A program made the position numbers and the translations under genes. A stretch of DNA of 25,841 bases, taken from the IMG/VR virus record IMGVR_UViG_3300027513_000010. One strand, written 5' to 3'. Each line of letters starts with the position of its first letter. The stretch's first letter is position 1. Of the stretch, positions 3 through 23,075 are shown piece after piece. The DNA is from a virus. The notes below the pieces were generated by a model. It made no database searches and had not been told where the DNA came from. It saw nothing but the letters and a program-made list of their open reading frames with translations.

Positions 3-2552
3 CCGAACTACGTGCGGGTCTACAACTTCGCCAAGAGCGACTACGAGTACCGGGTTGTTTCCCGATTGTGGGTCGATCATTACGCCGAGTTGAACGGGCC
101 TGACCCGATTGAGTACGTCAGCAAGGTCACGTCAGCCGAGAACATCGTCCAGCTTCCCAATGGCACGGTGATTTACAAAGCGGTGGGTGAGGGCAAGCTC
201 TCGACCGATGCCGGGGTTCGCAAGACGGACATGTTCTTCTACATCAACAACGATGGCCGGGTGGTGAGCTTGCCTGATAGCCATGTCAAGAGTGGCTGGC
301 ATGGGGAGCAAGGCGAGTTCCTCGGGAACATGGTCGCCAACGGCAAGGTGTCCAAAGTGGCGGTCATCGATGACACGTCACCGAACGCCGCAGCCTTCAC
401 GCCGGGTCTCTCGTCAGAGAAGCCCGCCGCCCTGGTTGCCTACGACCCCGCCGAGTTTTCCCACGAGGAAGCTCTGAGCGGTCATTGGACTTCTCTGTTC
501 GGGTTCACCGTCGAAGGCATGGAACATGCTGTTCCGATCCCCGATAGCTCGCTGACTAACTTGCCCAAGCCCGCCGATGCAGTCGATGTCTCCGGTGATG
601 AAACTGCTCCCGACCCACCACCCATTACCGGTGTCCTTGGGGCGATCCATGAAACGCCCGACAAACTGCCGGTGCGGTCAATCACTGATGCCGGTTTGGA
701 AATTTTCGCCCAACGTGACGAGACCGACGCTGGTACCGGTCTTGAGTTTGCTTTCGGGGATGCCGAATACATCGAAGACATGCAAGTGCGTGCTCAGATG
801 GCGAGAGATTCAGAGACCAATAATCGGTTTGTCGAATTCCATTTCAGAATGCCGGAGGACAGGGCCGAGGTCACGTCTGACATCTTGCTCACTGCTTCCA
901 AGGACGTGACCTACGGGAAGTGGGTCGATCTTGATAACTCTCTTGCCAGTGATTTGAAAAAGGGCGATGTCATCTCCGTTCGCAAGTCGGTGATGTCCGA
1001 CCAACTCAAGCCAAGCAATGGCAATGTGCCCAATGTTCGGCTGGTTGCTGATCCGGTTCACATCGGGGAAGACGGCAAGGGCATTCCGATCTACCGACTC
1101 ACCCTGGCCGCATCCGATGGAACGACCGGGGCAATGGACGTGCAGGAACGATCCATGCCGTCGATCAGGCGCTACGAGTGGGACGCCCACGCCATTGCTA
1201 CTTCGACCCCGACCTCGACGGTCAAGCTCACCGACAAGGCAGTGGCGGCGGGGTGGCACGACAACGGCATCATTGGATTCGACAAAGACCCGTCGCTCGG
1301 GGCTATCTCGATGGACGAGACCGGCGCAAAAATCTTCTCGGGGAAGAGCATCAAAGGCGGTGCTGGCTCGGGAGCATCGAGCACGGCTGAGATGGGCAGG
1401 CGTATCGAGCGCAAGTTTGCCGATGGAAGCTACGTCCGTATGAATGCTGTTCCCTCGTCAGTCAGCGGAACATCAGCGGGCAAGGGGTCTTCATACGGGG
1501 AGATACGTCGCTGGAACGAGTCGGGCATGGTCACGATTCGGGTGCCCGAAGCTGTGGCCGAGAACCCCGATGAGTTCCAGGCCGCGGTGAGTCGGGCGAT
1601 GGAGGCAGTCGGGATTCCGCCCGAAGCGCAAGGCCCGGCCACCGATGAGCAGATCGCTCGCTTCGCCCTTGGCAAGCTCTACAAGACCCACTCCCCGCAA
1701 TTCGCCCACCGGGAGGGTGGCGTTCAAGAGTTGTCGCCCAACGATGTCGGCATGGTGAAGGTCTTCGACCGATTGAACAAAGACCTAGAAGCCACGCTCG
1801 GGCGAAAGGTCACAATTGACGATTTGGAAATCCATCTCTTGGAAGATGGCCGCTTCGTGCCGATGCTGAGTAAGGAAGTGGCGAAGGCCATCACAGCCAA
1901 GCAAGGGAACCTTTGGTACCGCCACCGGCTGTACGGCGGCGGTGACGCCACCACTGTCGCTGAGATTCTCTCTAGCCCGAATCGGGGTCTCATGGGCGCA
2001 GCCGAGCGTTTCTCGGTGGGAATTTACGCTGGCGGGCAATCCAAGGAAAGCGACATGTCCTCGGGAGCCGGGAGTCGGGTGTACCTCAGCGGCAAGACCT
2101 ACTCGGCAAAAACCGATGATGAGGGCGTGTTCATGTTCGCCGGAGACCTCATCAATCAGTCGCTCGATATATACACCTCAGCTACCACGGGTGATTCATG
2201 GGGTTATCGGCCCGTTAACAACTCATTTTTGACTCAAGGCGGCATGTTTGAATACATGCAGAAGCAGAAACTAGACCCTCGACAAGTTGCCTACATATTC
2301 GTAAGCGCAAGTCAGCGACAGGACATTCTCGCCAAACTGAAGGCCAAGGGCATCACTGAGATTGGTGGCCGGTCGGTCGAGGAAATCATTCGTAGCTCAG
2401 ACATTCCCTTCAACATGAACGACGATGCGTTTCAAAATATCGGCATGACCGAGGCAGGAAACATCGTGAAGGTCACGGACTTGTTGCCGCCGGAAGTGAA
2501 GGCGCAGCTTCCCACCATCGCCGTCAGTGGTGAGGCCGGAGCAGCGGTATGA
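3..2552 (+). CDS. 5'-truncated very large putative virion-associated protein (>846 aa) with C-terminal ADP-ribosyltransferase-like domain
   Basis: Frame is open to the window edge. C-terminal region reads WYRHRL..EIL..GLMGAAERF..G...GQS..D...G.G.RVYLS....DSWG....FEYM, resembling the H/R..aromatic-S..E layout of ART folds. Stop overlaps the next ATG (ATGA). Confidence 0.75.
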   Translation, partial: PNYVRVYNFAKSDYEYRVVSRLWVDHYAELNGPDPIEYVSKVTSAENIVQLPNGTVIYKAVGEGKLSTDAGVRKTDMFFYINNDGRVVSLPDSHVKSGWHGEQGEFLGNMVANGKVSKVAVIDDTSPNAAAFTPGLSSEKPAALVAYDPAEFSHEEALSGHWTSLFGFTVEGMEHAVPIPDSSLTNLPKPADAVDVSGDETAPDPPPITGVLGAIHETPDKLPVRSITDAGLEIFAQRDETDAGTGLEFAFGDAEYIEDMQVRAQMARDSETNNRFVEFHFRMPEDRAEVTSDILLTASKDVTYGKWVDLDNSLASDLKKGDVISVRKSVMSDQLKPSNGNVPNVRLVADPVHIGEDGKGIPIYRLTLAASDGTTGAMDVQERSMPSIRRYEWDAHAIATSTPTSTVKLTDKAVAAGWHDNGIIGFDKDPSLGAISMDETGAKIFSGKSIKGGAGSGASSTAEMGRRIERKFADGSYVRMNAVPSSVSGTSAGKGSSYGEIRRWNESGMVTIRVPEAVAENPDEFQAAVSRAMEAVGIPPEAQGPATDEQIARFALGKLYKTHSPQFAHREGGVQELSPNDVGMVKVFDRLNKDLEATLGRKVTIDDLEIHLLEDGRFVPMLSKEVAKAITAKQGNLWYRHRLYGGGDATTVAEILSSPNRGLMGAAERFSVGIYAGGQSKESDMSSGAGSRVYLSGKTYSAKTDDEGVFMFAGDLINQSLDIYTSATTGDSWGYRPVNNSFLTQGGMFEYMQKQKLDPRQVAYIFVSASQRQDILAKLKAKGITEIGGRSVEEIIRSSDIPFNMNDDAFQNIGMTEAGNIVKVTDLLPPEVKAQLPTIAVSGEAGAAV

Positions 2553-3343: not shown

Positions 3344-5363
3344 TCGTACCTATCCCCGGCCATCGTCCATCGATTCACTGCATCTCAATGAGGCTGCGGT
3401 GCTCGATGAGCTTGAGCTTGTCGAGTGGCACGAGACCGATGCGGCGGTGTGGGCCAGGCGTGTTTTGAAAAACGAGCGGGGCCGGACTCTAAAAGCCCTG
3501 CTTGGGGATAACCCAACGCTTCCCGAAGGGCTGATCGCGGCAGGCACCGACTCGCTGGTTATCGGGTTGACCAGGGACGGACTCATGTATGAGGACGGCC
3601 AGTGGGTCGAGAACGAAGAGATGTGGGGAGCCACCGTCCCGCTCTCGGGCGACGATGTCGCCTTCGTAGCTCGTGCCTTCTCGGAAGGCTGTGACTCGGT
3701 GCTTTTCCGTCCGGTCTTCCCCCTGGCCTGGATTACCACTGACCCCGATCCGGTGCTGGCGGCGGCGGCGATTTCAAAACTGCCGTCGAACACCAAGCTC
3801 GTCGCCATCGTGGACGAACTCGACAAGAACGCAGTCTTGGAATTGATTGCCCTGGCTCCCGGCCCCACTCTCTACCGGCGACATGACGGCAAGTGGTACG
3901 AGGACGAGCAGTGGCTCATCCCGCTCCGCTCTATCGATCCGCCGCCCATCGTCGTGCTCACCGAGGAAGGTCTCCAAGGGAGCGTCATCGAGCAAGTGGA
4001 TGAAGCGACCAAGGGAGTCGAGTTCATCCCCAAGGAAGTGAAGCAGCGGAAGATTCGCTCTTCGGCGGCTCTCGATGTCATCGAGGATCATCTCGGTAAT
4101 TTGGAAATGCAGACGCTTCTCGCCGTCATCAAATCGCCGGAAGGTCTCAAGGGAACCGAGCGGCTCCGGCTCTATTGGACGACCGGCCAAGGCGGGCTGA
4201 CGAAGATCAGATGGGGCACCCCCGGCTCATGGACTCGATGTCACCGACATCTCGTCAAGTACCTCGGGCCGAGGGCCAAGGGCTATTGCACCAATCTCTG
4301 CCAGCGGATGGGTGGGTTCGGAGTGGCTTGTCATGTCGGGACTCGGGGTAGTGCTGCTCCGCTCTTGGCCGCTACCGACGATGACCCCTACGGGGATCGA
4401 ATTTCAAAAGAGGTTCGCAGTCGGTACCCGGCGTTCCCGGCCACCAAGCGCTACAAGCTGAAGCGGAAGCCCACCGGCGATTCCCGCACTCCCTACGCCC
4501 GAGAGGATCGCAAGACCACCCGAGAGCTATCCGATGCCGAGATAGAGCAGCGTCGGGAAGCGGCTCGCAAGTCAGCCCTGGCCCGGCGCAAGGGCCAATC
4601 TGAGAGCCGGGCTTCTCAGTGGAAGACGATGAATCTTCAGCAAAAGGTCGAGCTTGCCGCTCAGTTGGAAGCGGGTGCACGGCGACGGCTGGAAGAGTTG
4701 GAGTCGAAACTGAGGGCCACCGAAGACCCGTTGCTGCGAGCCGACATTCAGGGCGAGATGGACGACATCAGGGACATGCTCGGGGCGAAGGATGAATGGC
4801 TTCGGAACGCCCGATACGACGAACTCAAGCTGGCCGATTCTCAGATCGACAAGGCCGAAGGTGAGGTTGACCGGCTCCGTGATGGCTACGACCGGAAGCT
4901 GGACGCTCTGCGCGCCTCTCGTGACCAAATCCAGGCACAGCTTTCCCTCATCAAACCCGACCCCGATGCGATTCAACGGCGGGCCGATCAGATGGCGGGA
5001 AAGGCCAGTGATTTTCAGGAAGAGGCAAACGCCCTCTTGGAAAAGGCGGCGTATGCCTCGCCGGAGAAAGCCGCTCAACTCACTGCACAGGCCAACCGGC
5101 TCAAAGACCAGGCCAGTGCGGTTTACACGAGCATGGACGAGAACCTCGATCCCACGCTCAAGCTGAGGAACCAGCTTGCCAAGGTTCGCATGGACATCAG
5201 CAATGTCACTTCTGAGAAGGCTCGGAACATCGCCAGCAAGCGATCCGTGGTTGAGAAACTCAAGGACAACCGCTCCCGGCTGGTGCAGGGGTACCGGGAT
5301 GCCAGCGAGTATCTTCGTCGCCGCCGGGGTTCAGGGCAGACCGAAGGGAGCTTCCTCGTGTGA
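3336..5363 (+). CDS. multidomain phage head-region protein with YW..G.GG..KIRWGTPG.WTRC...L.KY motif and long C-terminal coiled coil
   Basis: Start moved to GTG 3336 (GGAG at 3322-3325, overlapping the upstream gene end); the 3117 extension lies inside the previous gene. KIRWGTPG domain at ~4160-4315. The charged helical C-terminal half looks coiled-coil. Confidence 0.8.
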   Translation: MSSRTYPRPSSIDSLHLNEAAVLDELELVEWHETDAAVWARRVLKNERGRTLKALLGDNPTLPEGLIAAGTDSLVIGLTRDGLMYEDGQWVENEEMWGATVPLSGDDVAFVARAFSEGCDSVLFRPVFPLAWITTDPDPVLAAAAISKLPSNTKLVAIVDELDKNAVLELIALAPGPTLYRRHDGKWYEDEQWLIPLRSIDPPPIVVLTEEGLQGSVIEQVDEATKGVEFIPKEVKQRKIRSSAALDVIEDHLGNLEMQTLLAVIKSPEGLKGTERLRLYWTTGQGGLTKIRWGTPGSWTRCHRHLVKYLGPRAKGYCTNLCQRMGGFGVACHVGTRGSAAPLLAATDDDPYGDRISKEVRSRYPAFPATKRYKLKRKPTGDSRTPYAREDRKTTRELSDAEIEQRREAARKSALARRKGQSESRASQWKTMNLQQKVELAAQLEAGARRRLEELESKLRATEDPLLRADIQGEMDDIRDMLGAKDEWLRNARYDELKLADSQIDKAEGEVDRLRDGYDRKLDALRASRDQIQAQLSLIKPDPDAIQRRADQMAGKASDFQEEANALLEKAAYASPEKAAQLTAQANRLKDQASAVYTSMDENLDPTLKLRNQLAKVRMDISNVTSEKARNIASKRSVVEKLKDNRSRLVQGYRDASEYLRRRRGSGQTEGSFLV

Positions 5364-5797
5364 GCCAGACCCTCTATTTTGAAAAACACGAGTCGGTCAT
5401 CGTCGCCGATGGCTTCGGGTTCAAAGCTCCGAAGGATTGGGGGAAAAGAGTTAATGAGCCTGCGCCTGAAGTTCAGGATTCAAAACTCGATTTTGAAATT
5501 GACCCGACCTCGAAACTGAGTGCACTGATCCACGAGTCAGAACTCGATCTGGCTCGGATGACTGCCGAAGGCCGGGCCAAGGTTTCTGAATTGCGTGATG
5601 CGGTAGCTGACCTCGATGTAAAAGCGCTGGTCACATCGGGAGCAGGGCATTTGGAGTTGATCGAGGGACAACGCAATTTGAAAGTGACCGAGATACGCCG
5701 GATCGAAGCCGAGACCGAGACACAGATAGCCCATCAGAAAGAGAGGGTCGCGAGACTGAAGACTCTTCGATCCGAAAAGCGAAAGGAATTGCTGTGA
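5360..5797 (+). CDS. hypothetical coiled-coil protein
   Basis: 145-aa ORF with GTGA overlaps at both ends and GGGAG upstream of the start. Confidence 0.75.
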   Translation: MSQTLYFEKHESVIVADGFGFKAPKDWGKRVNEPAPEVQDSKLDFEIDPTSKLSALIHESELDLARMTAEGRAKVSELRDAVADLDVKALVTSGAGHLELIEGQRNLKVTEIRRIEAETETQIAHQKERVARLKTLRSEKRKELL

Positions 5798-6690
5798 CGT
5801 TGGAAGACGGGATTCACAACGGCCACTCCCCATTCGGGATGGTTCGTGAGGACATCAAGGCGCTGGTCGCCGCGGCCTTCCCGGTAAGACCGCCTCGGGA
5901 ATGGTTCGACAACCCGAACTTCCTGCGACTCTCACCGCTTTCGGTCGAGAACTCGGGACAGTGCCGGGGCCACATCGCCTCGTGGCGACAGTCTCATATC
6001 GGGATGAGTGGTTCGGTACGTGCCCCCAAGTCGAAGAGCAAGTACGCCTTTTTCAAAACTGGCGTGGTCGAGACTGACAAGGGCGACTTCGTGGACGTGG
6101 GACAGATCACGCTCACCGGTGGGCACGCCGACATCAACGCAACCGTGGCCGATGCGGTAGCTCACTACGACAACACCAACTCAGCGATGATGGACGTGAA
6201 TGTGGGCGAGGATCGGTTCGGGATTTGGGTAGCCGGAGCACTCCGGCCCGATGTCTCCGAGAGCCAGCTTCGCATCTTGCGTGCCTCGTCGGTCTCCGGT
6301 GACTGGCGACCGATCAACGGTGGCTTGGAGCTTGTCGCCGTCTGTGCCGTGAATGTGCCTGGCCTCCCTATCCCGAGGGCAAGGGTTGCTTCCGGTCAGA
6401 TGCTCGCTTTGGTCGCTGCCGGGGTCGAGCCGCTGGTCGATCTAGCCCTGGAAGAGATGGTCGATGCCAGCTTCCAAGAGGCCTTCGGGGAGCAGTTGGG
6501 TGAGGTCTACGAGCGGATCGTCGCCCTGGAAGAGAAGAACCCCACCATGACCGCCGCAGAGCGCCGTGAGGCCATCGCTGAGGCCATCGAGACCGTCAGT
6601 GGGGAGACAGAGAGCCGGAGGGAGTCGCTTCGCAGGAACGTCCACAGGGAGGCTGTGAGCGCCTCTCTGCGAAGCCGAGTCCATTCCTGA
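5794..6690 (+). CDS. putative capsid maturation (prohead) protease with scaffold-like C-terminal tail
   Basis: Motifs GGHA (candidate His), GEDRFGIWVAGAL, ASSVSGDW (candidate Ser) and LELVAVCAVNVPG parallel the HK97/assemblin-type protease pattern H..ED..GL....S....L..VS.V..PA. Helical charged tail follows the second ALVAA. Confidence 0.7.
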   Translation: MTLEDGIHNGHSPFGMVREDIKALVAAAFPVRPPREWFDNPNFLRLSPLSVENSGQCRGHIASWRQSHIGMSGSVRAPKSKSKYAFFKTGVVETDKGDFVDVGQITLTGGHADINATVADAVAHYDNTNSAMMDVNVGEDRFGIWVAGALRPDVSESQLRILRASSVSGDWRPINGGLELVAVCAVNVPGLPIPRARVASGQMLALVAAGVEPLVDLALEEMVDASFQEAFGEQLGEVYERIVALEEKNPTMTAAERREAIAEAIETVSGETESRRESLRRNVHREAVSASLRSRVHS

Positions 6691-6691
6691 C

Positions 6692-8803
6692 ATGTCGCTG
6701 ACCAGGGCCGAGTTGCGCCAAAGGGTTCACGGCCCTAACTCGGCCCTGGTCGCGGCTGATTGGAACCCCGACCTTCACCCTCGGGGAAGTGATGGCCGGT
6801 TTATCGAGATTGGCTGGCTCATCAACCTCATCGACATGGCCGGGTTCCGGCACGGTCAGCGGGGGAAGAAAGAAGTCCAGGGTGAGGTCATCGACATCAT
6901 CCCTGACCCCGAGAAACCGGGCGATCCGATCATCCGAGTCAAAATGACCGACCCTCGTTGGGAGGGTGACAAGTTCGGGCACACCTTCGATGCCCGCAGC
7001 TATCAGGTCTCACAGAGGGAACCGACCAAGGCCAAGATTTCAAAACCAAGTGTGCCGCCCACACCGCCACCCGACACTCCGACACCCCCAATCGTGAAGT
7101 CGAGCATGGCGGTGGGCACACCGCTCCCCCCGATGGGTAAGCCCCCTAATTGGGACTCGCTGTCCACATCGGCGAAGCATCAATGGGTCAAGGATCAGAT
7201 GGAGGCTGACCTTGCCGCCTTTCGGGGGGAGCCAACCATTTTCGATCTGGCGGGCACCGGCCCCGAGATGGAGCACGCTCTTGCCGAGCGCTATCGCTGG
7301 CTGACTCACATCGATCCCGATACCGCTCTTCGGGTCGATGCCGTTGTCACCGATCAGCAAGCGTCCACGGTGGGAGACCCGAGGGTGAAGCCCGGTGGCC
7401 CTGGTGCCATCGCTGTCGCCCATCCCGGCACCGACCACCCCGGCGGGATTGGGCCGGTAGCCGGGAAGCGAGCCATCGTGCTCGGGCAGAGCTATTTCCA
7501 AGACGACAAGCTGTGGCAAAAGACCAAGGGGATGAACTCAGGCAAGTCGATGCCTTGGAGTGTGGGCAGTGCACAGGGTGATGAGACCTCAACCCTGGTT
7601 CACGAGTTCGGCCACCAGCGACAGTTCCGGTATCTGTCGGAGACCATGCTTGAGGTCGGTCAGCCGTTTTCAAAAGTGGGGCAGTCTGATGGCTTCGGCA
7701 CCATGCCGGATAGCTCCAACTGGCCGGAGACTCAGGCGGCTCGATACGCGATTCAAAATCTGGCTCCGAGTGCTTACGGCAAGTCCAAGTCCTCGGAGGC
7801 CTATGCCGAAGTGTGGGTCGCGGTGACCACCGACTACGAGCCGGTCAGCCCCGAGCTACAGGCAGCGTGGGACACATGGCACTCCGGCATGAGCATCCCC
7901 TCTCAGATGCCTCAGACCCGCTACGACCCCGCTGAAGTCAAGCCCTATCACATGCTTAGTCCGCAGGAAAAGGACGAGTATTGGGCCGAATACGGGCCTC
8001 TCATCGAGCTTCCTGGCATGAGGGAGCATTACCCCGACACTGCCAAGCTCTATGACGCATGGGAGCCGAACATGGCCCCTACCCCGGCTGGCCCCGAGGA
8101 AGCAGTCCCGATTGATTTTGGAAAGCCGCTTCGATCCACTGTCGGAGCAACCCATCCCGGTTTTGACCAGCGGTTCAATGTCGAGGTCGATGCTTTGGAA
8201 GGACGCTTTGGCGATCTGACCAATGATGCTCTGGCCTACATCGGAACCGGTGAGGACGAGCAGGGCAGAGCATGGTTTTTGGAGGGGTTGCAGTTCCAAG
8301 CCGCCGCTTCATCCAGCCCGTTTGGTTCGATGATGGCTTCGATGGAGGCTGACGCCCTTACCGATGGCGGTGTGGAATCGATTTGGGACTTGCCCTCGAT
8401 GAAAGGCACCTTCGGTCAAGTGATTTCCACTCCCAACCGAATATTGATGATCGTGAACCCGAGACTCGACCCCGATGAGATTCCCGAGTCGGAGCTTTTT
8501 GAACACCCCGGTCTGACCGGGATGCAAGCCACCATCGTCCATGAGTACGGCCACGCCATTCATCGGAGCGTTCAGCGAAAGACGATGGCTAATCCAGATT
8601 CAGCGAGTTATCTTTTGAGTTGGACAGAGATGATGGGGGAGAACCCAATCACGACCTACGGCTCTCGGAGCATGACCGAATCCCTGGCTGAGAAGTTCGT
8701 CCGGTACTACCACGAGATGGAGGGCGGCGAAGGTTGGGAAGAGTTCATCGAAAACAGTCGAGAGATATTGGGTCTTTCCGAAGGGGTCGGAGCAGCGATA
8801 TGA
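6692..8803 (+). CDS. putative virion-associated effector: N-terminal WNPDLHPRG..GRF motif, Pro-rich linker, two tandem zincin metallopeptidase domains
   Basis: HEFGH (7601-7615) with SAY..EAYAE (7796-7810) and HEYGH (8540-8554) with TTY..ESLAE (8678-8692). This is the HExxH plus downstream E pattern of lethal-factor-like zincins seen in MuF-type phage proteins. Confidence 0.75.
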   Translation: MSLTRAELRQRVHGPNSALVAADWNPDLHPRGSDGRFIEIGWLINLIDMAGFRHGQRGKKEVQGEVIDIIPDPEKPGDPIIRVKMTDPRWEGDKFGHTFDARSYQVSQREPTKAKISKPSVPPTPPPDTPTPPIVKSSMAVGTPLPPMGKPPNWDSLSTSAKHQWVKDQMEADLAAFRGEPTIFDLAGTGPEMEHALAERYRWLTHIDPDTALRVDAVVTDQQASTVGDPRVKPGGPGAIAVAHPGTDHPGGIGPVAGKRAIVLGQSYFQDDKLWQKTKGMNSGKSMPWSVGSAQGDETSTLVHEFGHQRQFRYLSETMLEVGQPFSKVGQSDGFGTMPDSSNWPETQAARYAIQNLAPSAYGKSKSSEAYAEVWVAVTTDYEPVSPELQAAWDTWHSGMSIPSQMPQTRYDPAEVKPYHMLSPQEKDEYWAEYGPLIELPGMREHYPDTAKLYDAWEPNMAPTPAGPEEAVPIDFGKPLRSTVGATHPGFDQRFNVEVDALEGRFGDLTNDALAYIGTGEDEQGRAWFLEGLQFQAAASSSPFGSMMASMEADALTDGGVESIWDLPSMKGTFGQVISTPNRILMIVNPRLDPDEIPESELFEHPGLTGMQATIVHEYGHAIHRSVQRKTMANPDSASYLLSWTEMMGENPITTYGSRSMTESLAEKFVRYYHEMEGGEGWEEFIENSREILGLSEGVGAAI

Positions 8804-9480: not shown

Positions 9481-9592
9481 CTCCCTCGTGCATGGCTCGG
9501 GTGTAAAAGACCGGGTCGATTTCAATTCCACAGAAAAAGCAGCGTGGATCGTTGGCGACCTTGTCCCGTCCTCTTGGTGATGGAGTTTTCAC
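9329..9592 (-). CDS. possible small Zn-binding protein (CFFC...CSTDC)
   Basis: GTGA overlap with the upstream minus-strand gene and two Cys pairs. Confidence 0.5.
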   Translation of the reverse strand: MKTPSPRGRDKVANDPRCFFCGIEIDPVFYTRAMHEGVSYAVCSTDCPKWWEGALHFGYGGPQWGHLVQPARPSRRKSRTERATPSH

Positions 9593-9834
9593 AAACCAAG
9601 GTCTTCGTCCCGAGGGCGCTCTCGTTCGATCATCTCATTTCGCCACCGGAGGGTGTGCGGATCGTAGGGAGCAAGGTTCGGAGCTTCGGGGTCAACGTCT
9701 TTGAAAACTTCCAGCTTTCCAAGTCGCCGCTTATCCAGTTTGTCCCAGGCAATGAACATGAAAAACAGCCATCCACCTAGAAGGCAAATGACTGCTATCC
9801 ATTCCAGAATGTCGATCAAGATGTCTTCGGTCAT
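9589..9834 (-). CDS. small membrane protein
   Basis: N-terminal hydrophobic helix ILEWIAVICLLGGWLFFMFIAW followed by basic residues; ATGA overlap. Confidence 0.75.
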   Translation of the reverse strand: MTEDILIDILEWIAVICLLGGWLFFMFIAWDKLDKRRLGKLEVFKDVDPEAPNLAPYDPHTLRWRNEMIERERPRDEDLGL

Positions 9835-10684: not shown

Positions 10685-10908
10685 CGGAGCAAGACCTCGT
10701 CAGCAAACGGCACCAGCCGACGATTCCTGATCCACGCCTTGTTACCCCGGTCAGCCGAGAGACCTTCGGTATCGAGTTTCACCAGCGAGCAATATTGCGT
10801 GTATTGATCGTCGTGGTATCGGACGATGGTTCCTGTCTCGTTGTCAAAAAGGGAGTTCTCTTGTGCCTCGGAAGCGGGGAGTATCGAGACTCTCATTCCC
10901 GTTTTCAT
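10681..10908 (-). CDS. small SH3/KOW-like protein, paralogue of 10469..10684
   Basis: Same shared pattern; ATGA overlaps. Confidence 0.75.
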   Translation of the reverse strand: MKTGMRVSILPASEAQENSLFDNETGTIVRYHDDQYTQYCSLVKLDTEGLSADRGNKAWIRNRRLVPFADEVLLR

Positions 10909-12004: not shown

Positions 12005-12039
12005 GTCTGGCTCCTGTCTCTTGCTTGCCTTACAAGGCA

Positions 12040-13540: not shown

Positions 13541-14316
13541 GTGTCCTCTTTCGTTACGCCCGCTGCTTCCAGAATTGCTTTGTCGCTCGGCTCTTCCGGC
13601 ACCGGCAACGGGAAGACCTTCTCGATGAGGGCTTCCAAATTGGGGTCGTCTACTACTGGCGGGATTTTGCCTCCTAGTCTCTGGCCTGCCTCAAACTGCG
13701 ACGTGCGCCTCGTGAGCAGCCGTCGCTTCTCAACCAACTCGTCGCCCTCCTGCTCCATCTCGACGTAGAGATACCCGGTGAGGTCGAGGAAGTAGGGCAT
13801 CACGTCTTGTAGCTGTCCCTGGACGAATGGCCCCCACATGCCATCCCGGTTCTTCGCCATGCTGGTGAGCACGACGCACTCAAGCGGCTTGGTGGGGTGC
13901 ACGGTCAAGTCCCTGATGTCACGGATCAGACCGGCGACCTCTCGGAAGGCATCGCCCCATTGCTGCAATTGCAACTGGCTACGGCCCGAGATGCCCTCGA
14001 TATAGCGTTGCTGCAATTCGGAGATGGAGTCGATGATGAAGGAATTGAACGGGTGCTTGCCCGAGGCCAGCCATTGGTAGGCCTTCTGAACTGTGTCCCA
14101 TGACCGGGTTGGCACCACGCACGTATCCCACGACCCATCGGCTTCGGGCGGGGCACTCTTGGCCGGGTTCCAATCGATTCGTTTGATGGGGAGAAAGCGT
14201 GAGGCAGCTTCCACGTCCATGTAGAGCCGGGGCGCGGGCGACGTGACCGAGAGAGTTGATTTCCCGCTCTTCGATGCGCCGTAGATGAGGAACGAAACGC
14301 TCCTGTCTTCACTCAT
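13537..14316 (-). CDS. AAA_24 / Sak4-like ATPase (putative single-strand annealing recombinase)
   Basis: LIYGASKSGKST Walker A, MDVE, FIIDSISELQ Walker B, Q.WG; ATGA overlap at 14316. Confidence 0.8.
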   Translation of the reverse strand: MSEDRSVSFLIYGASKSGKSTLSVTSPAPRLYMDVEAASRFLPIKRIDWNPAKSAPPEADGSWDTCVVPTRSWDTVQKAYQWLASGKHPFNSFIIDSISELQQRYIEGISGRSQLQLQQWGDAFREVAGLIRDIRDLTVHPTKPLECVVLTSMAKNRDGMWGPFVQGQLQDVMPYFLDLTGYLYVEMEQEGDELVEKRRLLTRRTSQFEAGQRLGGKIPPVVDDPNLEALIEKVFPLPVPEEPSDKAILEAAGVTKEDT

Positions 14317-15251
14317 GCCGTTGTGCTCCAATCAGGGCCGGAAGTCCTTGAGGTTCCCGGCACCACATCTGACTCGTCAGATTTCGTTTCAGTATAATAC
14401 CTTTCATGCCTTCCACCAACCAGGAATTTGACATTCAGATATTCCTCAGCCGCCGCTGGTGAGTCGTCAGCGATGAGGCAAGGCTGTCGATAATCGCACC
14501 AGGCGCAGTGCTGGTTGGGACTCGGGTAATCGGACTTCTCATCGATGGCTCGGATCATGTCGATGCAGATGCGCTCGATGTCTCGGAGCCGGTTGGGGCC
14601 GGAGCGAGCAGTGCCGGGAACCTTGAATCGCTCGATCTTGGGAGACCGGCCCTTGACGAGCACGGTGTACCAGGCCTCGGCCATCGGATCGTCGGGGTGG
14701 CTGAGATTCTCGATGGCGGTGTAGACGTGGTGCTGGTAGCTGTGCTCCAACCGAGCACGCTGGCCGGAGTCCCATCTCCCGAGAGATTTGAAATCGTTCA
14801 GAACTAAGAGGCCGGAGTCTTCCCGTCGAAACTTGGTGTCGATCTTCCCACGGAGCAGGACATCTCCCCCGAGAATCTCGGCCTCGATCATTTCCTCGGT
14901 GCTCACCACTTCCAGGCCGTGGTCAGCCCCGGTCTCTTCCAGCCAGTCGAAGTAGGCCGAGACCAGGCGACGACCGAGAGCGATGTCCTTGTAAAGCTCG
15001 TCCATTTCCCACTCGGGAACCGAGTGCTCTTCCTGCCAGGCCACCGCCTTCGCCGAGAGAGCGTTGTAGAAAACCACCGGGTCAGCCCCGCCGCCGGAGT
15101 AGTAATTTTCAAAAACCTTGTGCACCCGGCTCCCGAGTTCTCGGTAACCGTGCACTTTCGGGTGTGGGTGGAAGTCCCGCACGTAGTTCCAGTTCCAGAG
15201 TCGGCGGCACTCAAGGAAATTGTCGATGTCGGAGTGGGTGAAGATCATCAC
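14313..15251 (-). CDS. PD-(D/E)XK exonuclease (RecB/Cas4-like) with probable Fe-S cysteines
   Basis: THSDI..F..C, LG..VH..E, GKID, NDFKS and C-terminal CAWCDYRQPC. Confidence 0.85.
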   Translation of the reverse strand: MMIFTHSDIDNFLECRRLWNWNYVRDFHPHPKVHGYRELGSRVHKVFENYYSGGGADPVVFYNALSAKAVAWQEEHSVPEWEMDELYKDIALGRRLVSAYFDWLEETGADHGLEVVSTEEMIEAEILGGDVLLRGKIDTKFRREDSGLLVLNDFKSLGRWDSGQRARLEHSYQHHVYTAIENLSHPDDPMAEAWYTVLVKGRSPKIERFKVPGTARSGPNRLRDIERICIDMIRAIDEKSDYPSPNQHCAWCDYRQPCLIADDSPAAAEEYLNVKFLVGGRHERYYTETKSDESDVVPGTSRTSGPDWSTTA

Positions 15252-15481
15252 GATCCCATCAACTCCAATTCGTCGGGGAGCAGGATGATGACTCCGTCCA
15301 AGTCCTTTTCAGATAACTCAAGCTCGGTCTCGTAGGGAGCGAAGACGGACTCGGGCACTTTCAAATTGACCGCGATCCATACTCCCGGTGATTCCGGTTT
15401 GCGGGTTCGCACCGTGTTCACCATCACCTTGCCGTGAGCAGATTTTTCAATTCGTAAATACGCCCTGCCGGTCAGCATCAC
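15248..15481 (-). CDS. hypothetical protein
   Basis: 77-aa ORF with GTGA overlaps at both ends. Confidence 0.7.
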   Translation of the reverse strand: MMLTGRAYLRIEKSAHGKVMVNTVRTRKPESPGVWIAVNLKVPESVFAPYETELELSEKDLDGVIILLPDELELMGS

Positions 15482-16551
15482 GTTCCCATCATCGACATCA
15501 TCGGCATCATCACAAACCCCACTTGCTCATCGTCCGGCCCGTCGAGATGAAACATGTTCTTGGGGTTGGTGTCGAAACTCAGCCGTACATCGCCGGGAGC
15601 CAGAACCGAGACCATCGCCCGCAGCATTCCGGCATTGAATGCGATGGAGTAGTCGGCAACATGCCAGTCGCCAACCAGGGTCTCTTCGCTGGTGCCGACA
15701 TCAGTTCTGAAAGCCGAGACTTCCCCGCCCTTCTTGGATTTCAAATCGAGCTTCATGGGGAGATGACCGCGTGCGATCACGCTGGCTCGATCACAGGCGG
15801 CGAGCAAGTCTTCACGAGTCGTTTCAAAATGTCCGAGTAGGTCGAAGCTGTCGAGTGCGGTTTGGAAGCTCGGGAACTTGGCATCGCTCCGAAGAGTGCT
15901 GATCGCATTCATCCCCTGTCGAAACGTGACCCGATTGTTCTGCACGATGACATCGACATCGCCGCCACCCGAATCCAAAACCTTCTCGGCGAGGGGAAAG
16001 AACCCGCTCGGCACCACGACTTGCTCCCCGGCCTCCCACGGCGGGGTTCCGAGATGAGTCACCACGGTCATGCGGAACTTGTCGGTGGTGATGAAGTGCT
16101 GCCCGGTGATAAGCACGGTGTCAGTGCGGTAGGCACCGAGGTAGCGGATCGCTCGGAGCAGTTGCTCGATCCCGATTTTGAAAGTGGTTTTCTTTGAGAA
16201 GACCACGTCCATGTAATCCGCCGGGTTGCCGTAGCCGAGTTGGTACTTGGGGCCGAGCGAACTTTTGAGAATCAGCCTGCCGTCCTTTTTTGAAAGCGTG
16301 ACATCTCCCGGCGGCATTGCCTTCACCGCACGGATTGCTTCCGGTGGCAAAAGCAGGCGGTCGCCTTCCTCGGCGAGTGGGATGGGGATGGCGGTCTTGA
16401 TCGCAGTCGTGGTGTTGTGAGCCGAGAACACGACCCACTCCCCGGTGCAGTCGAGAAGGACTTGCCGGTGCACAGCGATGCCGCTCGACAAAGCGAACTC
16501 GACCTTTTCCAAGGCAGTGCTGAGGTCAGATTGCGGGGCAGTAAGAATCAA
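15478..16551 (-). CDS. dnaN: DNA polymerase III beta-subunit-like sliding clamp
   Basis: 357 aa; TTDKFRM (cf. ATD..RL), KFPSF (cf. FP.Y), IAFNAGML (cf. I.FN..YL), C-terminal VMMPM (cf. LIMP.R). TTG is the only start after an in-frame stop. Confidence 0.8.
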   Translation of the reverse strand: MILTAPQSDLSTALEKVEFALSSGIAVHRQVLLDCTGEWVVFSAHNTTTAIKTAIPIPLAEEGDRLLLPPEAIRAVKAMPPGDVTLSKKDGRLILKSSLGPKYQLGYGNPADYMDVVFSKKTTFKIGIEQLLRAIRYLGAYRTDTVLITGQHFITTDKFRMTVVTHLGTPPWEAGEQVVVPSGFFPLAEKVLDSGGGDVDVIVQNNRVTFRQGMNAISTLRSDAKFPSFQTALDSFDLLGHFETTREDLLAACDRASVIARGHLPMKLDLKSKKGGEVSAFRTDVGTSEETLVGDWHVADYSIAFNAGMLRAMVSVLAPGDVRLSFDTNPKNMFHLDGPDDEQVGFVMMPMMSMMGT

Positions 16552-17220: not shown

Positions 17221-17829
17221 TTACAATCCCCGACATTCGCCCCGATTGTATGGACTCCAAGCTGTCCAGCCCTGTATGTCCTTGATCCTGGCGGCGGCGT
17301 AGAGGTTCTTCTCGGGGATCATCAAGTCGTTCACTGACATTCCGAAGTCATTGGCCCATCCTGGCATGACTTGCATCAGACCGGAGGCTCCGCTCGGGTT
17401 TTTCGCAGTGGGATTTCCCGCGCTCTCTCGCTCCATGAGGCAGAGGGCGGTCTCGACATCACCAGGGGCGAAGTGTCCGGCCACCAGCGGACGCCACTCT
17501 TCGACCGAGTCCATCCAAATCTCGCCCGCCGCTGCTTGGGACACTTCCCCGGTCGCTGACGCTATCGCCGCTGTAGTGGTCGGGCTGCAATCGCCGGTGA
17601 AGTGGCAGGAATGGCGGGATTCAAAATCCTGTCTTTCAAAATTCAGAACCGCCAGCCGCTCGATGGCGCTCGATGTGAGCACGTCGGTTTCCTGAATGTC
17701 TTGGTAGACCTTCTCAACTCGGGCTTCCCAACTCGACTCCCACTCTTGAATCTCTTCGTGGTCGTGAGCTTGGGCGGTCAGGGGTATCAGGATCAATGCA
17801 GCGGCCAGGGCCAGTCTTATCTTGGTCAT
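17221..17829 (-). CDS. secreted SLT-family lytic transglycosylase
   Basis: Signal peptide MTKIRLALAAALILIPLTAQA; RESAGNPTAKN (catalytic ES), ASGLMQV, N...A, W.AW; AGAGGA RBS. Confidence 0.85.
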   Translation of the reverse strand: MTKIRLALAAALILIPLTAQAHDHEEIQEWESSWEARVEKVYQDIQETDVLTSSAIERLAVLNFERQDFESRHSCHFTGDCSPTTTAAIASATGEVSQAAAGEIWMDSVEEWRPLVAGHFAPGDVETALCLMERESAGNPTAKNPSGASGLMQVMPGWANDFGMSVNDLMIPEKNLYAAARIKDIQGWTAWSPYNRGECRGL

Positions 17830-19368: not shown

Positions 19369-19661
19369 GCGGCTTGTCGCTCCCCGGTACGGGCGGATCG
19401 GAACTTGTTGTGCACGTCTTTGACGCCCTTGAGTAAATCCTCGTAGTCGCTGTAACTGAGTTGGGCGACCCACGACCCGGCATTGTCGAGTGAGCGCTTT
19501 GCCAGAGCATGATGATTCTCGGCTTCGATTAGATCGCTGCACTCGGAGCACGCCGCCCATGCCCCGAGTGACCCGCTGACTTCGTCATAGACGAAGCTCT
19601 TGGCCGGGTAAGCCCAAGCGACTTCCGACGAGCCGCAAAAATCACACTTCGGTTCCTTCAC
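19365..19661 (-). CDS. Zn-binding protein (CDFC....W.AC..C..LIE)
   Basis: Two CxxC pairs; GTGA overlap. Confidence 0.75.
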   Translation of the reverse strand: MKEPKCDFCGSSEVAWAYPAKSFVYDEVSGSLGAWAACSECSDLIEAENHHALAKRSLDNAGSWVAQLSYSDYEDLLKGVKDVHNKFRSARTGERQAA

Positions 19662-20314
19662 AGCAACCGGCCCTCGACTCTGATGCTGATGAGCCAGGCA
19701 ACGCCGTTCTCATCGACGGCAACCCGGCTCCCGTCCTGTGCTCGGGCCACCACGTTCAGTCCGGCATCGATGAGGAAGTCGTCGGGAACCTTGTCACCGA
19801 TCCCATCAAGCTCGACTCCCTCGACGTTGGCTCGGTAGACGTATCGACCCGCTCCGACTCGGACGAGACCGGGTTCCTTGCTCACGAGGTTGCTGATTGC
19901 CTGACTGATCTGGCGGATGGAGAACGTGCTCTCGGGGTCGAGCAGTTTTTGAATATCCCGGCTGGTGAGTTCCTGGCCTGGATGCGATGTGAAAACCGTT
20001 CTCACTATGTCAACGTGAGAGTTGCTTCTCTTCGACTCCCGGTGCACGTCGCCCATGTCCTTGTCGAGATTGTCTGGCTGGTAGGAATACACGCCCTGTG
20101 AGATGCGGACGATGCCGGTCGTTTCCCGGTTGTTTCGCAGATACGAGAGAGCGGTTGAGGCCTGGCTCGCGTTGATAGCTCCGTCCATTGAATCAACGAT
20201 GTCCTTGGCGGTGACTTCCACCTTGCCGGTGTTGAGCAGAGCGACCCGAACGGCCTCGGTGAAAGACCCGTTGTCGTTGTCCTCGATGTCCTCGATGTGT
20301 CCAATCACAGTCAT
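19658..20314 (-). CDS. tandem winged-helix DNA-binding protein
   Basis: Two internal repeats, VR.......E.T..DI.......Q.S.A.S.L.....G.VR...G.Y.Y; AGGAG RBS. Confidence 0.7.
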   Translation of the reverse strand: MTVIGHIEDIEDNDNGSFTEAVRVALLNTGKVEVTAKDIVDSMDGAINASQASTALSYLRNNRETTGIVRISQGVYSYQPDNLDKDMGDVHRESKRSNSHVDIVRTVFTSHPGQELTSRDIQKLLDPESTFSIRQISQAISNLVSKEPGLVRVGAGRYVYRANVEGVELDGIGDKVPDDFLIDAGLNVVARAQDGSRVAVDENGVAWLISIRVEGRLL

Positions 20315-20685
20315 GTGCTTCTCCTGAATAGCTCTTCGTGTAAAAGCTCTCGATGGTTATGAGCGCCTTCCACCTTGTACCCGTCCTGATACCGATATTG
20401 TCGGGACACCATCCGATAGCTGTAGGTGTCCCTCCCATACCCGACCACGCAAAGATCGATCCGCTCGGTGTGACACCGCTGGCAGATCAGAACACGGACT
20501 GCGTCGGGATGCCAGGGATGGTGAAGCGCTCGGGATTTCAAATCCTGATCGTTCGACTTTGCCACCGGCCCAACGTAGCTCGGCATCCAAGCGTGACCGA
20601 TAGTGCGGCATTCCAAATACTCCCGATTGAGTTTGTGAATCCCGGTTGTGATCTGCTCGACGCTTGGCTCGATCCGCTCAGTCAT
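20311..20685 (-). CDS. Zn-binding actinophage protein (CR..GH.W....L.C.RC.T.R....Y.Y..GY)
   Basis: Recognisable motif; ATG 20685 coupled to an upstream micro-ORF. Confidence 0.75.
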   Translation of the reverse strand: MTERIEPSVEQITTGIHKLNREYLECRTIGHAWMPSYVGPVAKSNDQDLKSRALHHPWHPDAVRVLICQRCHTERIDLCVVGYGRDTYSYRMVSRQYRYQDGYKVEGAHNHRELLHEELFRRST

Positions 20686-20821
20686 GGTCGGCCCATCTGA
20701 GGTCTGGAAGGTCGGGCGAAGCTGAGAAGAGTCGATCAGCATGTAGCTGGCAGAGGGGAAGCACGTCACCCAATACCGCTACGGCGGGCGCGTGTTCGCA
20801 TTGGCTCAAAGCACAATTCAT
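20678..20821 (-). CDS. 47-aa putative Zn-binding microprotein (C....C......LC..H)
   Basis: Not in the ORF track. MNCALSQCEHAPAVAVLGDVLPLCQLHADR...; ATGA overlap upstream and 8-nt overlap downstream. Confidence 0.6.
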   Translation of the reverse strand: MNCALSQCEHAPAVAVLGDVLPLCQLHADRLFSASPDLPDLRWADHD

Positions 20822-21051
20822 TTCTTGTCCAGGCCTTCTCTCGGTCTTGTCTTGCGTGGCAATTTACCACCGCCTGCAATCACGGCAACGGCATTCTTCG
20901 GCTTACGGCGACAAGGCTCCAACGGATGGTCACGAGTCGGCTCCCCGCAGTTGTGGCAGAGGGTGATTCCTAGACCCTTGAAGTCGTGGTCGCCGTAAGT
21001 CTCCGAGCGCTCAGAGCGCCGGTCGGGACGACCTTCGGAACGTCGGCTCAT
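20818..21051 (-). CDS. small basic Zn-binding protein (CHNC.....H....C)
   Basis: TAATG overlap with the VWA gene stop. Confidence 0.65.
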   Translation of the reverse strand: MSRRSEGRPDRRSERSETYGDHDFKGLGITLCHNCGEPTRDHPLEPCRRKPKNAVAVIAGGGKLPRKTRPREGLDKK

Positions 21052-23075
21052 TACGAACCCCATCCGCTTCCCCGCTTTGAGGCGAAGGCCTTGTCAACCG
21101 CTTTTGAAATCACTCGTACCAACTCCATCGGCAGAGACTCGGCGTTGTGGTGGTGCCTGTCGATCCTGATTGCCTCAACGTTCGGTATCGCATGGTCGGC
21201 TTGATCGACCCAAATGATGGCGACCCCGGCCTTGTGCATTCGCTCCATCCAGGCCGCTCGCTTCTCTGGCTCAAAGGCGTTCACAAGCTCGTTGTCTGAA
21301 ATCACGATCAGCACCTTGGCTCCTGGCGCAGTAGTCAGACCAAGCGCTCCATCCAGAGCGGCCATTGCGATGTCGAATTCCTCGACCCCGCCATTGGCTT
21401 GACGCTCCCGAACCTCGGTCGGAATCTCGTCGGGGTTCAAGACCGATTCGACAAACGTTCCGAAGGTGACGGCTGCGGTCTTAGCGTGAATCCGGTGACC
21501 CGCTTTGCCCACGATGTAGGCAGCGGTGGCGACCATGCTCTGCGCCCAAGACATCGACCCCGAGGTATCGGTTGCGATGCCCACTATGACCGGAGCGCCA
21601 AGCCCATGCTTCCGCTTTTTGTCGATCCAGGGCTTGGCCGTGCTCATGCGACCCTGCGCTCGTTCGGCAGATCGCCTCACCGCTTCCCGGCTCTTGAGTC
21701 GTCCGGTGGGCTGCTCAGAGAGCACCCGCGCTGAGGTAATGGTCGGAACCGTCAGAGTCTCAAAGTGCTGTGCCAGCTTGTTCGATGCCGCAACCTCATG
21801 GGGAGTCGGCTTGCGGACTTTCCACTGAGCGCCCTCGTAGCTCTGCCTCTTTTCAAAAACCTTCGACACTGCTTCCCGAGGGTTGGTGGTCTCGATTTCG
21901 ACCCGCTCCCAATCCACTTCCTCGACCAGCTTGGTCACGGCCTTGCGGAATGCCGGGATGCCGTCAGCGGTGGCGGATGAGGACTCACCCTTAACCTCGA
22001 TTACCGGCAATTCATCGGCATCAACGAATTCACTTTCGTCGGATTCGCCGTCGCTACTCTCACCGTCAGTGGGTTCGCCGGGAGCATCGCTTTCGCCTTC
22101 CCCGCCATCTCCGTCGCCGTCGCCGCCGCCCTCACCCTCTTCGCCATCTTCCTTGTCGGCATCCTCGGTCTTGCCCTTGGTACCGACTTCGCCCTTGGCC
22201 TTTTCCTTGACATGATGGGAGCAACCGCCTTCGTCACCCTCAGTATCTTCGCTGGTGATTCCGGCAGTCTCATTCCATTCCTTGGCAAGTTCGACCAGCC
22301 GTTCAAAATCACGGTCGGCATCGACTGCCATCGCCTCGTCATAGATGTCGGTCAGATCATCGATTAGATCGTCACCGAAATGAGACCGCATGACATTGTC
22401 AATGGGCGAGAATTCCAGGGCGCTCAGAGTCCCGGCGTTGGCCCGACCCTTGATAAGTGCCCAGGCCTGCAATGCCTGTCCAACCGAAACCATGTCGGCT
22501 TTTGAAAGCTCATCGAAAAGCAGTCGTCCGACTGCCCTCAGATATTCCTTCGTTCTGAATTTGGGGAAGTGCGGGTTCCGCTCATCGATAGCCCGCTTCT
22601 CAACTCGGCCTTCCTCAAAGATGGTCAGAGTGTGAATGATGGGCAGAGTTGTCCTGAATTTGGTACCGGCCCAAGTTGACCAACGAGCGTGCGCCGCCTC
22701 GTGAATGAGGACACCGAGAACCTCCCGTCTGATCTTGTTGTGAGCCTTGGTGCCGCCAGCGGTCATTGACCGTCCCGAGTAGCGAACCCAACTGTCACCG
22801 TCGAGGATGGCCTTCGCCAGATCGCTCACGTCAAGGTCAGGATGGAGTCTCAGAAACTCGCCAACGTGGAACGTGATGTCGGCCTCACCCGGCGTGTACC
22901 AGGCCATCGCCGGGGCGGGCTTCACGGTATCCCAACTGACCTTCGCCAGAACACCGTCCCGTTTCAGGCCCATCTCCCTCAGCATCTCATTTAAGACTCG
23001 CTGAAATTCGACCTTGGTGCTCATCAGAACCGAGATGTCGGGGTAGGCGTTCTTAACCGGAGCGATGGTGGTCAT
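21051..23075 (-). CDS. metallopeptidase-VWA domain protein (CobT/CbbO/NorD-like partner of AAA+ ATPase)
   Basis: LIHEAAH plus EE.RVE N-terminal zincin, Gly/Glu/Asp-rich linker, MIDAS DTSGSM, LIVISD. Confidence 0.85.
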   Translation of the reverse strand: MTTIAPVKNAYPDISVLMSTKVEFQRVLNEMLREMGLKRDGVLAKVSWDTVKPAPAMAWYTPGEADITFHVGEFLRLHPDLDVSDLAKAILDGDSWVRYSGRSMTAGGTKAHNKIRREVLGVLIHEAAHARWSTWAGTKFRTTLPIIHTLTIFEEGRVEKRAIDERNPHFPKFRTKEYLRAVGRLLFDELSKADMVSVGQALQAWALIKGRANAGTLSALEFSPIDNVMRSHFGDDLIDDLTDIYDEAMAVDADRDFERLVELAKEWNETAGITSEDTEGDEGGCSHHVKEKAKGEVGTKGKTEDADKEDGEEGEGGGDGDGDGGEGESDAPGEPTDGESSDGESDESEFVDADELPVIEVKGESSSATADGIPAFRKAVTKLVEEVDWERVEIETTNPREAVSKVFEKRQSYEGAQWKVRKPTPHEVAASNKLAQHFETLTVPTITSARVLSEQPTGRLKSREAVRRSAERAQGRMSTAKPWIDKKRKHGLGAPVIVGIATDTSGSMSWAQSMVATAAYIVGKAGHRIHAKTAAVTFGTFVESVLNPDEIPTEVRERQANGGVEEFDIAMAALDGALGLTTAPGAKVLIVISDNELVNAFEPEKRAAWMERMHKAGVAIIWVDQADHAIPNVEAIRIDRHHHNAESLPMELVRVISKAVDKAFASKRGSGWGS

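Follow-up and report, generated by a model that had tools for sequence, protein, structure and literature searches.

Stoperators, to which the immunity repressor of the temperate Cluster A mycobacteriophages binds, are 13 bp long, asymmetric, oriented with transcription and mostly intergenic, and known Chi sites are asymmetric and G-rich. The DNA uptake sequences (DUS) and uptake signal sequences (USS) of competent bacteria are chromosomal words that are read by a pilus-associated receptor and are not mirror-symmetric. Here, we analyzed the heptamer TTT[C/G]AAA (TTTSAAA), which recurs through the genes of a 25,841-nucleotide stretch of viral DNA with a GC content of 58% (IMG/VR record IMGVR_UViG_3300027513_000010); this whole stretch is called the window below. 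A preliminary description, made from the letters of the window, had noted the word as strongly over-represented, proposed that selection acts on the DNA, and likened the array to stoperators, Chi, KOPS (FtsK orienting polar sequences) and matS. A search of the literature returned nothing that describes TTTSAAA or comparable over-represented symmetric word arrays in phages. The window was compared with a sister phage, G002 (IMGVR_UViG_3300018481_000019, 93,817 bp, rated complete; loci L008-L012), which was found by searching with the sliding-clamp protein and then scanning viral contigs.

Enrichment of TTTSAAA against synonymous backgrounds

All 27 exact matches were found at the starts that the preliminary description had listed for them, and its estimate of about one match by chance agrees with the value of about 1.3 given by base composition. 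Dinucleotide shuffles of the window contain 2.47 sites (n = 100, largest 9) and the second-order Markov expectation is 2.5, with TTTCAAA being by far the most deviant 7-mer of the window (z = 15.6). The reversed word AAASTTT, which has the same composition, and TTTWAAA both have a count of 0 in the window. The sites lie in genes of both strands, with 27 of 27 in open reading frames (ORFs) that have coding signal, and they fall in frames 0, 1 and 2; the codon readings quoted for them earlier (TTG AAA, TTT CAA A, ATT TCA AAA and TTC AAA) are correct. On the sense strand, 14 sites read TTTCAAA and 13 read TTTGAAA. Eight near-variants, TTCAAAA or TTTTGAA lacking the third T or A, are also real and lie no more than 2 nt from the approximate positions first given.

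TTTSAAA is its own reverse complement. Information grows from 5-mers to 7-mers and ends at 8-mers, so the word carries 7-8 bp and is best written tTTT-S-AAAa. Though the two cited examples of flanks that extend the symmetry (20533-20545 and 14785-14795) do so, the claim that flanks often do this was overstated, as the sole general flank signal is a T at -4 and an A at +4 in about 50% of the sites, with none further out.

Four synonymous shuffles were applied to the window, in which codons were permuted within genes or across genes, or context-matched third bases were exchanged, pooled or within genes. The third-base shuffle swaps only third bases with identical neighbours and thereby preserves the protein, the codon usage and every dinucleotide. 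Permuting synonymous codons gave 4.3 sites within genes and 2.4 across genes, while the third-base shuffle gave 3.5 sites when pooled and 9.9 (maximum 17) within genes, against 27 observed. The enrichment thus did not vanish under codon- and dinucleotide-preserving backgrounds, and an artefact of codons, dipeptides or dinucleotides is rejected on these shuffles (2.4-9.9 versus 27).

In addition, we determined the occupancy of the word, that is, the share of places realized among those where the encoded peptide permits the word by synonymous choice. TTTSAAA occupies 27 of 73 such places in the window (37%) and 82 of 179 in G002 (46%), whereas seven control words of similar composition occupy 0-6% in the window, and control words do not exceed 7% overall. 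Where Phe-Glu is followed by a codon starting with A (TTT GAA A), G002 carries the word at 24 of 29 places.

Both phages avoid many palindromes: of the 64 palindromic hexamers, the window lacks 41, TTCGAA and TTTAAA included, and G002 lacks 39, although 16-53 copies of each would be expected there; 107 hexamers of all kinds are missing from G002. In principle, codon usage, dipeptide content or palindrome avoidance that funnels codon pairs into a few AT-rich words could have produced the enrichment incidentally, and forbidding all absent hexamers does lift the shuffle expectation slightly. However, we regard this as scarcely credible. When synonymous swaps were made by Monte Carlo and any swap that created a hexamer absent from the real sequence was rejected, 1-4 sites resulted in the window against 27 observed, and 32-34 in G002 (with 19 outside called genes, which cannot be shuffled) against 102 observed, and a by-product of restriction avoidance is rejected on these numbers. 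Dinucleotide- and codon-preserving shuffles also miss the count, and a related clade described below avoids palindromic hexamers similarly, TTCGAA included, yet enriches another word. The proposal that selection acts on DNA and not on protein is therefore supported, in that the enrichment survives nulls that preserve codons, dinucleotides and avoidance, be it through selection or another force.

The two phages do not avoid the same set (ATCGAT 18 versus 0, AGGCCT 10 versus 0 and GTGCAC 9 versus 0), which suggests different host restriction repertoires. GAATTC (38 versus about 16 expected) and CAATTG (30 versus about 16) are over-represented in G002, where most other hexamer palindromes are missing.

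Sister lineages, the change of word and gene content

G002 is collinear with the window, with protein identities of 37-82%, and contains 102 copies of TTTSAAA against two of the reversed word. The spacing of the sites is near-random and near-Poisson, with a coefficient of variation of 0.85, no regularity, and a widest gap of 3.9 kb in 93.8 kb; clustering in G002 is not above Poisson either (three clusters of four sites in 400 bp versus 4.5 expected). Most 10-kb bins show a balance of C- and G-centred forms, with a trend to neither end, and the gene-sense reading (C 41, G 42) is balanced over both gene strands. The asymmetric 8-mers TTTCAAAA and TTTTGAAA number 31 and 35. Enrichment in G002 requires a T-run and an A-run of at least 2 each, summing to at least 6, around one G or C, and forms with two central G/C are likewise raised.

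Where residues are identical, the window and G002 use the same codon in 50% of cases versus 39% by chance. Since synonymous positions are thus near saturation, the equal density must be maintained and not passively inherited, which extends the earlier claim of a genome-wide array to conservation in sister lineages. Synonymous-site conservation was also followed place by place: among 16 orthologous places that permit the word in both phages, seven carry it in both, three in the window only, none in G002 only and six in neither, suggesting from the aligned genes that individual sites persist.

Upstream of its Prim-Pol/helicase block, G002 has a stretch of about 1.8 kb (L012:300-2100; 80.3-82.1 kb) in which no reading frame shows coding potential. 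Direct and inverted repeats abound in it, among them a 28-nt inverted repeat, 12-nt units that recur every 65-70 bp and a recurring YGTTTTTGAAA unit. The five words in this stretch share one orientation, and it might serve as an origin or a regulatory region. At 71559 of G002 (L011:11559 region), one word falls in the loop of a hairpin that resembles a terminator and whose GC-rich stem of 11 bp flanks TTTTGAAAA.

TTTSAAA is also enriched in L005 and L006 (clamp 41-43% identical), in L016 and L017 (AAA_5 74% identical), in L067 and L072 (SNF2 72% and 68% identical), and in L004, L015 and L064, which are more DNA of the window's own phage. The array is absent from the cultured distant relatives Gordonia phage GMA2 and Actinomycetia phage DSL-LC01, from contigs in Nocardia, Streptomyces and Plantactinospora assemblies, and from the remoter metagenomic relatives L019, L054-L057, L059 and L068-L080, save L072. 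AGGWCCT and AGCSGCT, tried as private words of remoter relatives, were dropped because they are not top 7-mers.

A different word was found in L018, a 34-kb contig of NCBI assembly GCA_029940505.1 whose AAA_5 protein is 60% identical to that of the window. Only five TTTSAAA occur in 21 kb of it, whereas TTCWGAA is its top 7-mer with 30 copies in the same 21 kb (15 TTCAGAA and 15 TTCTGAA), where the synonymous shuffle that preserves dinucleotides yields 9.2 (z = 10.8), and fills 27 of the 85 contexts that permit it. L060, an independent contig of 3 kb from this clade, has five TTCWGAA versus 0.6 expected. The occupancy of TTTSAAA is 37% in the window, 46% in G002, 29% in L016, 7% in L018 and 0% in L019, and that of TTCWGAA is 9%, 5%, 3%, 32% and 3% in the same order. 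From TTTSAAA to TTCWGAA, position 3 changes from T to C and position 5, symmetrically, from A to G, and the centre base is of another class. Removing the centre base from TTCWGAA and TTTSAAA leaves TTCGAA and TTTAAA, both wholly absent from the window, G002, L016 and L018, while TTCGAA is present (3-8 copies) in relatives without the array; with so many palindromes avoided, this absence may be fortuitous, or it may hint at the reader.

In L058 (IMGVR_UViG_3300010047_000008; 68% GC), 20 GTATAC occur in 21 kb versus about one expected. Within genes, some copies are spelled with rare codons (GTA TAC or TAT AC); further copies lie in promoter-like sites or in the repeated unit CCGGTATACAGGG. Its partly promoter-like or repeated contexts make GTATAC a weaker case for a third lineage word.

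The closest cultured relatives of the window are large Gordonia and Microbacterium phages and DSL-LC01, and because their proteins are only 25-44% identical, the window derives from an uncultured actinobacterial phage. Megablast of the window against phages gave no match, and an exact-record search for its 678-aa protein (aa, amino acids) gave nothing. Among the genes of G002 are those for a family A polymerase, an 857-aa Prim-Pol fusion and an SNF2 helicase, and a terminase gene lies at its left end. The positions of all sites and genes are listed in Table 1.

Two near-identical promoter-like sites were seen on the minus strand of the window (25261-25300 and 25507-25545), with TTTGCAT followed by CAATTACA and an extended -10 of TGTATAAT or GAGTATAAT; in the first of them a GACACAGACACAGA leader follows ahead of a small gene. 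The same -10-like word with the GACACAGAC motif recurs in L015, L007, L055, L057 and L058. In DSL-LC01 (L003, 1-50000), ATTATAAC and TGTTATAA occur 18-24 times per 50 kb versus 0.1 expected, probably as a phage promoter word unrelated to TTTSAAA.

Table 1. Sites, near-variants and genes of the window, with the homing-endonuclease genes of its relatives.
Feature	Position	Strand	Context
TTTGAAA	953-959		gene 3-2552 (+), codons GAT TTG AAA
TTTCAAA	2430-2436		gene 3-2552 (+), TTT CAA AAT
Near-variant TTCAAAA	2774-2780		
TTTGAAA	3464-3470		gene 3399-5363 (+), GTT TTG AAA
TTTCAAA	3772-3778		gene 3399-5363 (+), ATT TCA AAA
TTTCAAA	4402-4408		gene 3399-5363 (+), ATT TCA AAA
TTTGAAA	5378-5384		gene 5360-5797 (+), TTT GAA AAA; kept in G002
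Near-variant TTCAAAA	5479-5485		
TTTGAAA	5492-5498		gene 5360-5797 (+), TTT GAA ATT
TTTGAAA	5677-5683		gene 5360-5797 (+), AAT TTG AAA; kept in G002
TTTCAAA	6051-6057		gene 5794-6690 (+), TTT TTC AAA
TTTCAAA	7038-7044		gene 6692-8803 (+), ATT TCA AAA
TTTCAAA	7668-7674		gene 6692-8803 (+), TTT TCA AAA; kept in G002
Near-variant TTCAAAA	7752-7758		
Near-variant TTTTGAA	8497-8503		
TTTSAAA	9700-9706		gene 9589-9834 (-), sense GTT TTC AAA
TTTSAAA	11061-11067		gene 10905-11180 (-), sense GGT TTC AAA
TTTSAAA	12244-12250		ORF 12060-12362 (-), sense GTT TCA AAA
TTTSAAA	12401-12407		gene 12308-12646 (-), sense GTT TTG AAA
TTTSAAA	14787-14793		PD-(D/E)XK nuclease gene (-), sense GAT TTC AAA; kept in G002
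TTTSAAA	15107-15113		PD-(D/E)XK nuclease gene (-), sense TTT GAA AAT
TTTSAAA	15359-15365		gene 15248-15481 (-), sense AAT TTG AAA
TTTSAAA	15739-15745		sliding-clamp gene (-), sense GAT TTG AAA
TTTSAAA	15822-15828		sliding-clamp gene (-), sense TTT GAA ACG
TTTSAAA	16177-16183		sliding-clamp gene (-), sense ACT TTC AAA
TTTSAAA	16289-16295		sliding-clamp gene (-), sense CTT TCA AAA
Near-variant TTCAAAA	17620-17626		
TTTSAAA	17634-17640		SLT transglycosylase gene (-), sense TTT GAA AGA
Near-variant TTCAAAA	19228-19234		
Near-variant TTTTGAA	19947-19953		
TTTSAAA	20536-20542		gene 20311-20769 (-), sense GAT TTG AAA; 13-bp extended palindrome
TTTSAAA	21103-21109		gene 21051-23087 (-), sense ATT TCA AAA
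TTTSAAA	21851-21857		gene 21051-23087 (-), sense TTT GAA AAG; kept in G002
Near-variant TTCAAAA	22302-22308		
TTTSAAA	22501-22507		gene 21051-23087 (-), sense CTT TCA AAA
Large genes without family match	3-9215	+	block
Replication/recombination block	downstream of 3-9215	-	
DUF6011 protein	11177-12040		minus-strand block
DUF669 protein	12935-13540		minus-strand block
AAA_24/Sak4-like ATPase	13537-14331		minus-strand block
PD-(D/E)XK nuclease	14313-15251	-	minus-strand block
DNA polymerase III beta-type sliding clamp	15478-16551	-	minus-strand block
SLT transglycosylase	17221-17829	-	minus-strand block
678-aa protein	21051-23087	-	minus-strand block
AAA_5/MoxR-like ATPase	23574-24533		minus-strand block
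HNH_3 gene	L015:340-975		
HNH_3 gene	L016:14960-15412		
HNH_3 gene	L017:6711-7124		
HNH_3 gene	L017:17466-17888		
HNH_3 gene	L018:769-1341		
HNH_3 gene	L018:5098-5673		
HNH_3 gene	L018:15572-16177		

Candidate readers and competing explanations

We give about an even chance to the reading that TTTSAAA is a phage-private recognition word, selected on duplex DNA, that is read by a two-fold-symmetric and probably phage-encoded protein and labels phage DNA. Selection on double-stranded DNA would then keep about one copy per kb genome-wide, spelled within genes through the otherwise rare codons TTT, TCA, TTG, GAA and AAA. The reader would most likely be a protein or enzyme of two-fold symmetry, a homodimer, in contact with duplex DNA, because TTTSAAA is self-reverse-complementary and the switch to TTCWGAA is symmetric, and it would most likely be encoded by the phage and co-evolve with the word. 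In five high-GC actinobacterial genomes, none of which is the host, TTTSAAA numbers 2-49 copies in 3.6-10.2 Mb, no different from the reversed control. If the host is of this kind, phage DNA would carry the word at about 100 to 1000 times the host density, so the word could act as an address label by which the reader finds or marks phage DNA among host DNA, be it for loading, coating, modifying, cutting or nicking. A wider proposal, in which an actinobacterial phage clade keeps a private address word, a co-evolving phage reader separates phage from host DNA, and the pair changes together (TTTSAAA to TTCWGAA, possibly GTATAC), is put forward more tentatively, as possible and short of an even chance.

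Two proteins had been named as possible readers in the preliminary description. The 218-aa protein (19658-20314, minus strand) has no family match, and its predicted fold, with two winged-helix domains and a small beta domain (mean predicted local distance difference test score 72), agrees with the tandem winged helix ascribed to it. It is conserved in the TTTSAAA clade, whose versions are 36-38% identical to that of the window, and is absent at the syntenic place in L018, and a fold search with it gave generic winged-helix matches only, with template modeling scores of 0.2-0.27. The 12624-12914 protein has a weak helix-turn-helix match. Both are candidates only, and a comparison of gene content (loci of about 20 kb each) singled out no reader. 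Lsr2, which prefers TpA-rich DNA, is unlikely to be the reader because TTTSAAA holds no TpA. A PF01555 methyltransferase adjoins the polymerase gene in L016, L017 and L018; no Pfam methyltransferase match was obtained among the ORFs at the syntenic place, the only position scanned, in L015 (the window's phage) or G002, both of which bear the array, and the methyltransferase was set aside as an unlikely reader for this reason.

Several points weigh against a phage-encoded label. No reader was found, and no protein family of the window or G002 is known to bind such a site. A host might supply the reader, and the rarity of the word was seen only in five high-GC genomes of non-hosts. Moreover, a site of 7 bp would be short if the reader were a classical helix-turn-helix dimer. 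With about half of the permitted contexts unfilled, selection per site is moderate. The agreement in site positions between the window and G002 could partly reflect an unequal cost of the word among codon contexts, and the TTCWGAA clade is based on one 21-kb and one 3-kb contig.

The word could instead be read by a host protein, as a Chi-like signal for RecBCD/AdnAB, a nucleoid protein site or a site of another host machine, with the word switch tracking a host switch. Sister phages that differ in avoided sites such as ATCGAT and AGGCCT have the word in common, which would make it more stable than a strain-level defence repertoire, and the G002 contig begins just ahead of the terminase gene, which may mean fixed ends open to exonucleases. 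We nevertheless hold a host reader to be unlikely, since the complete genome shows no orientation bias along its length or relative to its ends, the word is no more frequent than its reversed control in the five actinobacterial genomes, the phage has a recombination module of its own (AAA_24/Sak4-like ATPase, DUF669 and PD-(D/E)XK nuclease), and both confirmed words and the third candidate are mirror-symmetric, which suits a duplex reader and not a Chi-like single-strand scanner. This symmetry also counts against a preferred start or loading site of the phage primase-polymerase or helicase, used on both strands for lagging-strand priming about every kilobase, as a reader of single-stranded template needs no mirror symmetry, though TTTSAAA, TTCWGAA and the less secure GTATAC all have it. 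Characterised primases mostly require just 3-4 bases, and the sites do not cluster above Poisson. Such priming, which we consider less probable still, would fit the Prim-Pol fusion, family A polymerase and sliding clamp encoded by G002, the match between about one site per kb and the spacing of bacterial Okazaki fragments (about 1 kb), and the non-coding repeat-rich stretch by the Prim-Pol block with its five words in one orientation.

About as improbable as priming, in our view, is a readerless molecular drive, in which biased mismatch repair or gene conversion turns near-cognate into cognate words, in the way that very-short-patch repair enriches CCWGG in E. coli and uptake bias enriches DUS and USS. 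The commonest synonymous neighbour, TTTGAAG, is down five-fold (2 versus 10 expected) while the cognate word is enriched, the build-up from 5-mers to 7-mers is gradual, as in a soft process, and only 37-46% of the contexts are filled. However, TTTCAAG, the other neighbour, shows no depletion, and enrichment extends to several neighbours. No Vsr-like gene was seen, the methyltransferase is unmatched in two array-bearing phages, and an enrichment of 10-40 times far exceeds known repair-driven biases. The mobile genes speak against a drive as well: seven HNH_3 homing-endonuclease genes of variable presence, 3.7 kb in total and inserted at differing places among relatives, contain none of their own genome's words versus 4.3 expected (P = 0.014), although they are AT-richer (47-55% GC) than their surroundings, which makes a fast uniform mutational process unlikely.

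Whatever reads the word, roughly a hundred codon choices per genome are held against codon bias to spell it, and the array together with the orderly symmetric change between sister clades points to a DNA-reading machine that is important along the whole chromosome. The reader, once found, would show how the phage marks or handles its own DNA, with protection, replication start, compaction and programmed nicking among the possibilities, and TTTSAAA and TTCWGAA would then form a natural matched specificity pair for studying the evolution of DNA recognition. The word can also serve as a simple tag by which metagenomic fragments are assigned bioinformatically to the phage clade, and calls for caution in codon-usage and host-prediction methods that presume synonymous sites to be free of load.

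Comparison with known systems

The likenesses drawn in the preliminary description were not supported. Chi and KOPS are both asymmetric and polar, whereas TTTSAAA is symmetric and the complete G002 genome shows no skew, no trend to an end and no bias by gene strand. matS is confined to one domain, whereas TTTSAAA is spread near-randomly throughout. Stoperators share with the array many dispersed copies of one short site along an actinobacterial phage genome, but they are asymmetric repressor sites of 13-14 bp oriented with transcription in temperate phages, whereas the present word has 7 bp, is symmetric and lies inside genes in either orientation (C 14/G 13 in the window and C 41/G 42 in G002). 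No integrase, integrase-sized recombinase or repressor family was recognised among the window and G002 proteins scanned, with many small genes outside the scan. With Chi, including the accumulation of Chi by phages, the array has in common an over-represented short word, selection on DNA, and a possible role in protecting linear phage DNA; however, Chi is orientation-dependent and abundant in the host, whereas TTTSAAA lacks polarity and stays at background level in the five actinobacterial genomes.

The odd-centred Type II restriction-modification sites (CCWGG, GTSAC and TTSAA) have a similar design, with short inverted-repeat arms around one S or W and a symmetric change of specificity between relatives. 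However, phages normally avoid such sites, whereas TTTSAAA is enriched, and PF01555 is unmatched in two of the array-bearing phages.

A conserved short phage word inside genes is also known from the T5 nick sites and from the nick-associated motif TACTRTGAC of Pseudomonas phages, which is conserved within its lineage, has about 88% of its copies in coding sequence and is kept despite little nucleotide similarity (PMC11780129). That motif is an asymmetric 9-mer with about 9-13 copies in 45 kb, most of which lie on one strand and crowd toward one side of the genome (PMC11780129). TTTSAAA, in contrast, is symmetric and evenly spread, with about 100 copies per 94 kb.

The DUS of Neisseria and the USS of Pasteurellaceae appear to offer a further analogy, in that they too occur about once per kb, in both orientations, mostly in permissive codon contexts within genes, and as dialects of lineages. 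TTTSAAA differs from them in being a phage word, in its mirror symmetry and in involving no uptake machinery. If it is indeed a private label, it would be the phage-side counterpart of the uptake-sequence dialects, and a self-recognition system new for viruses.

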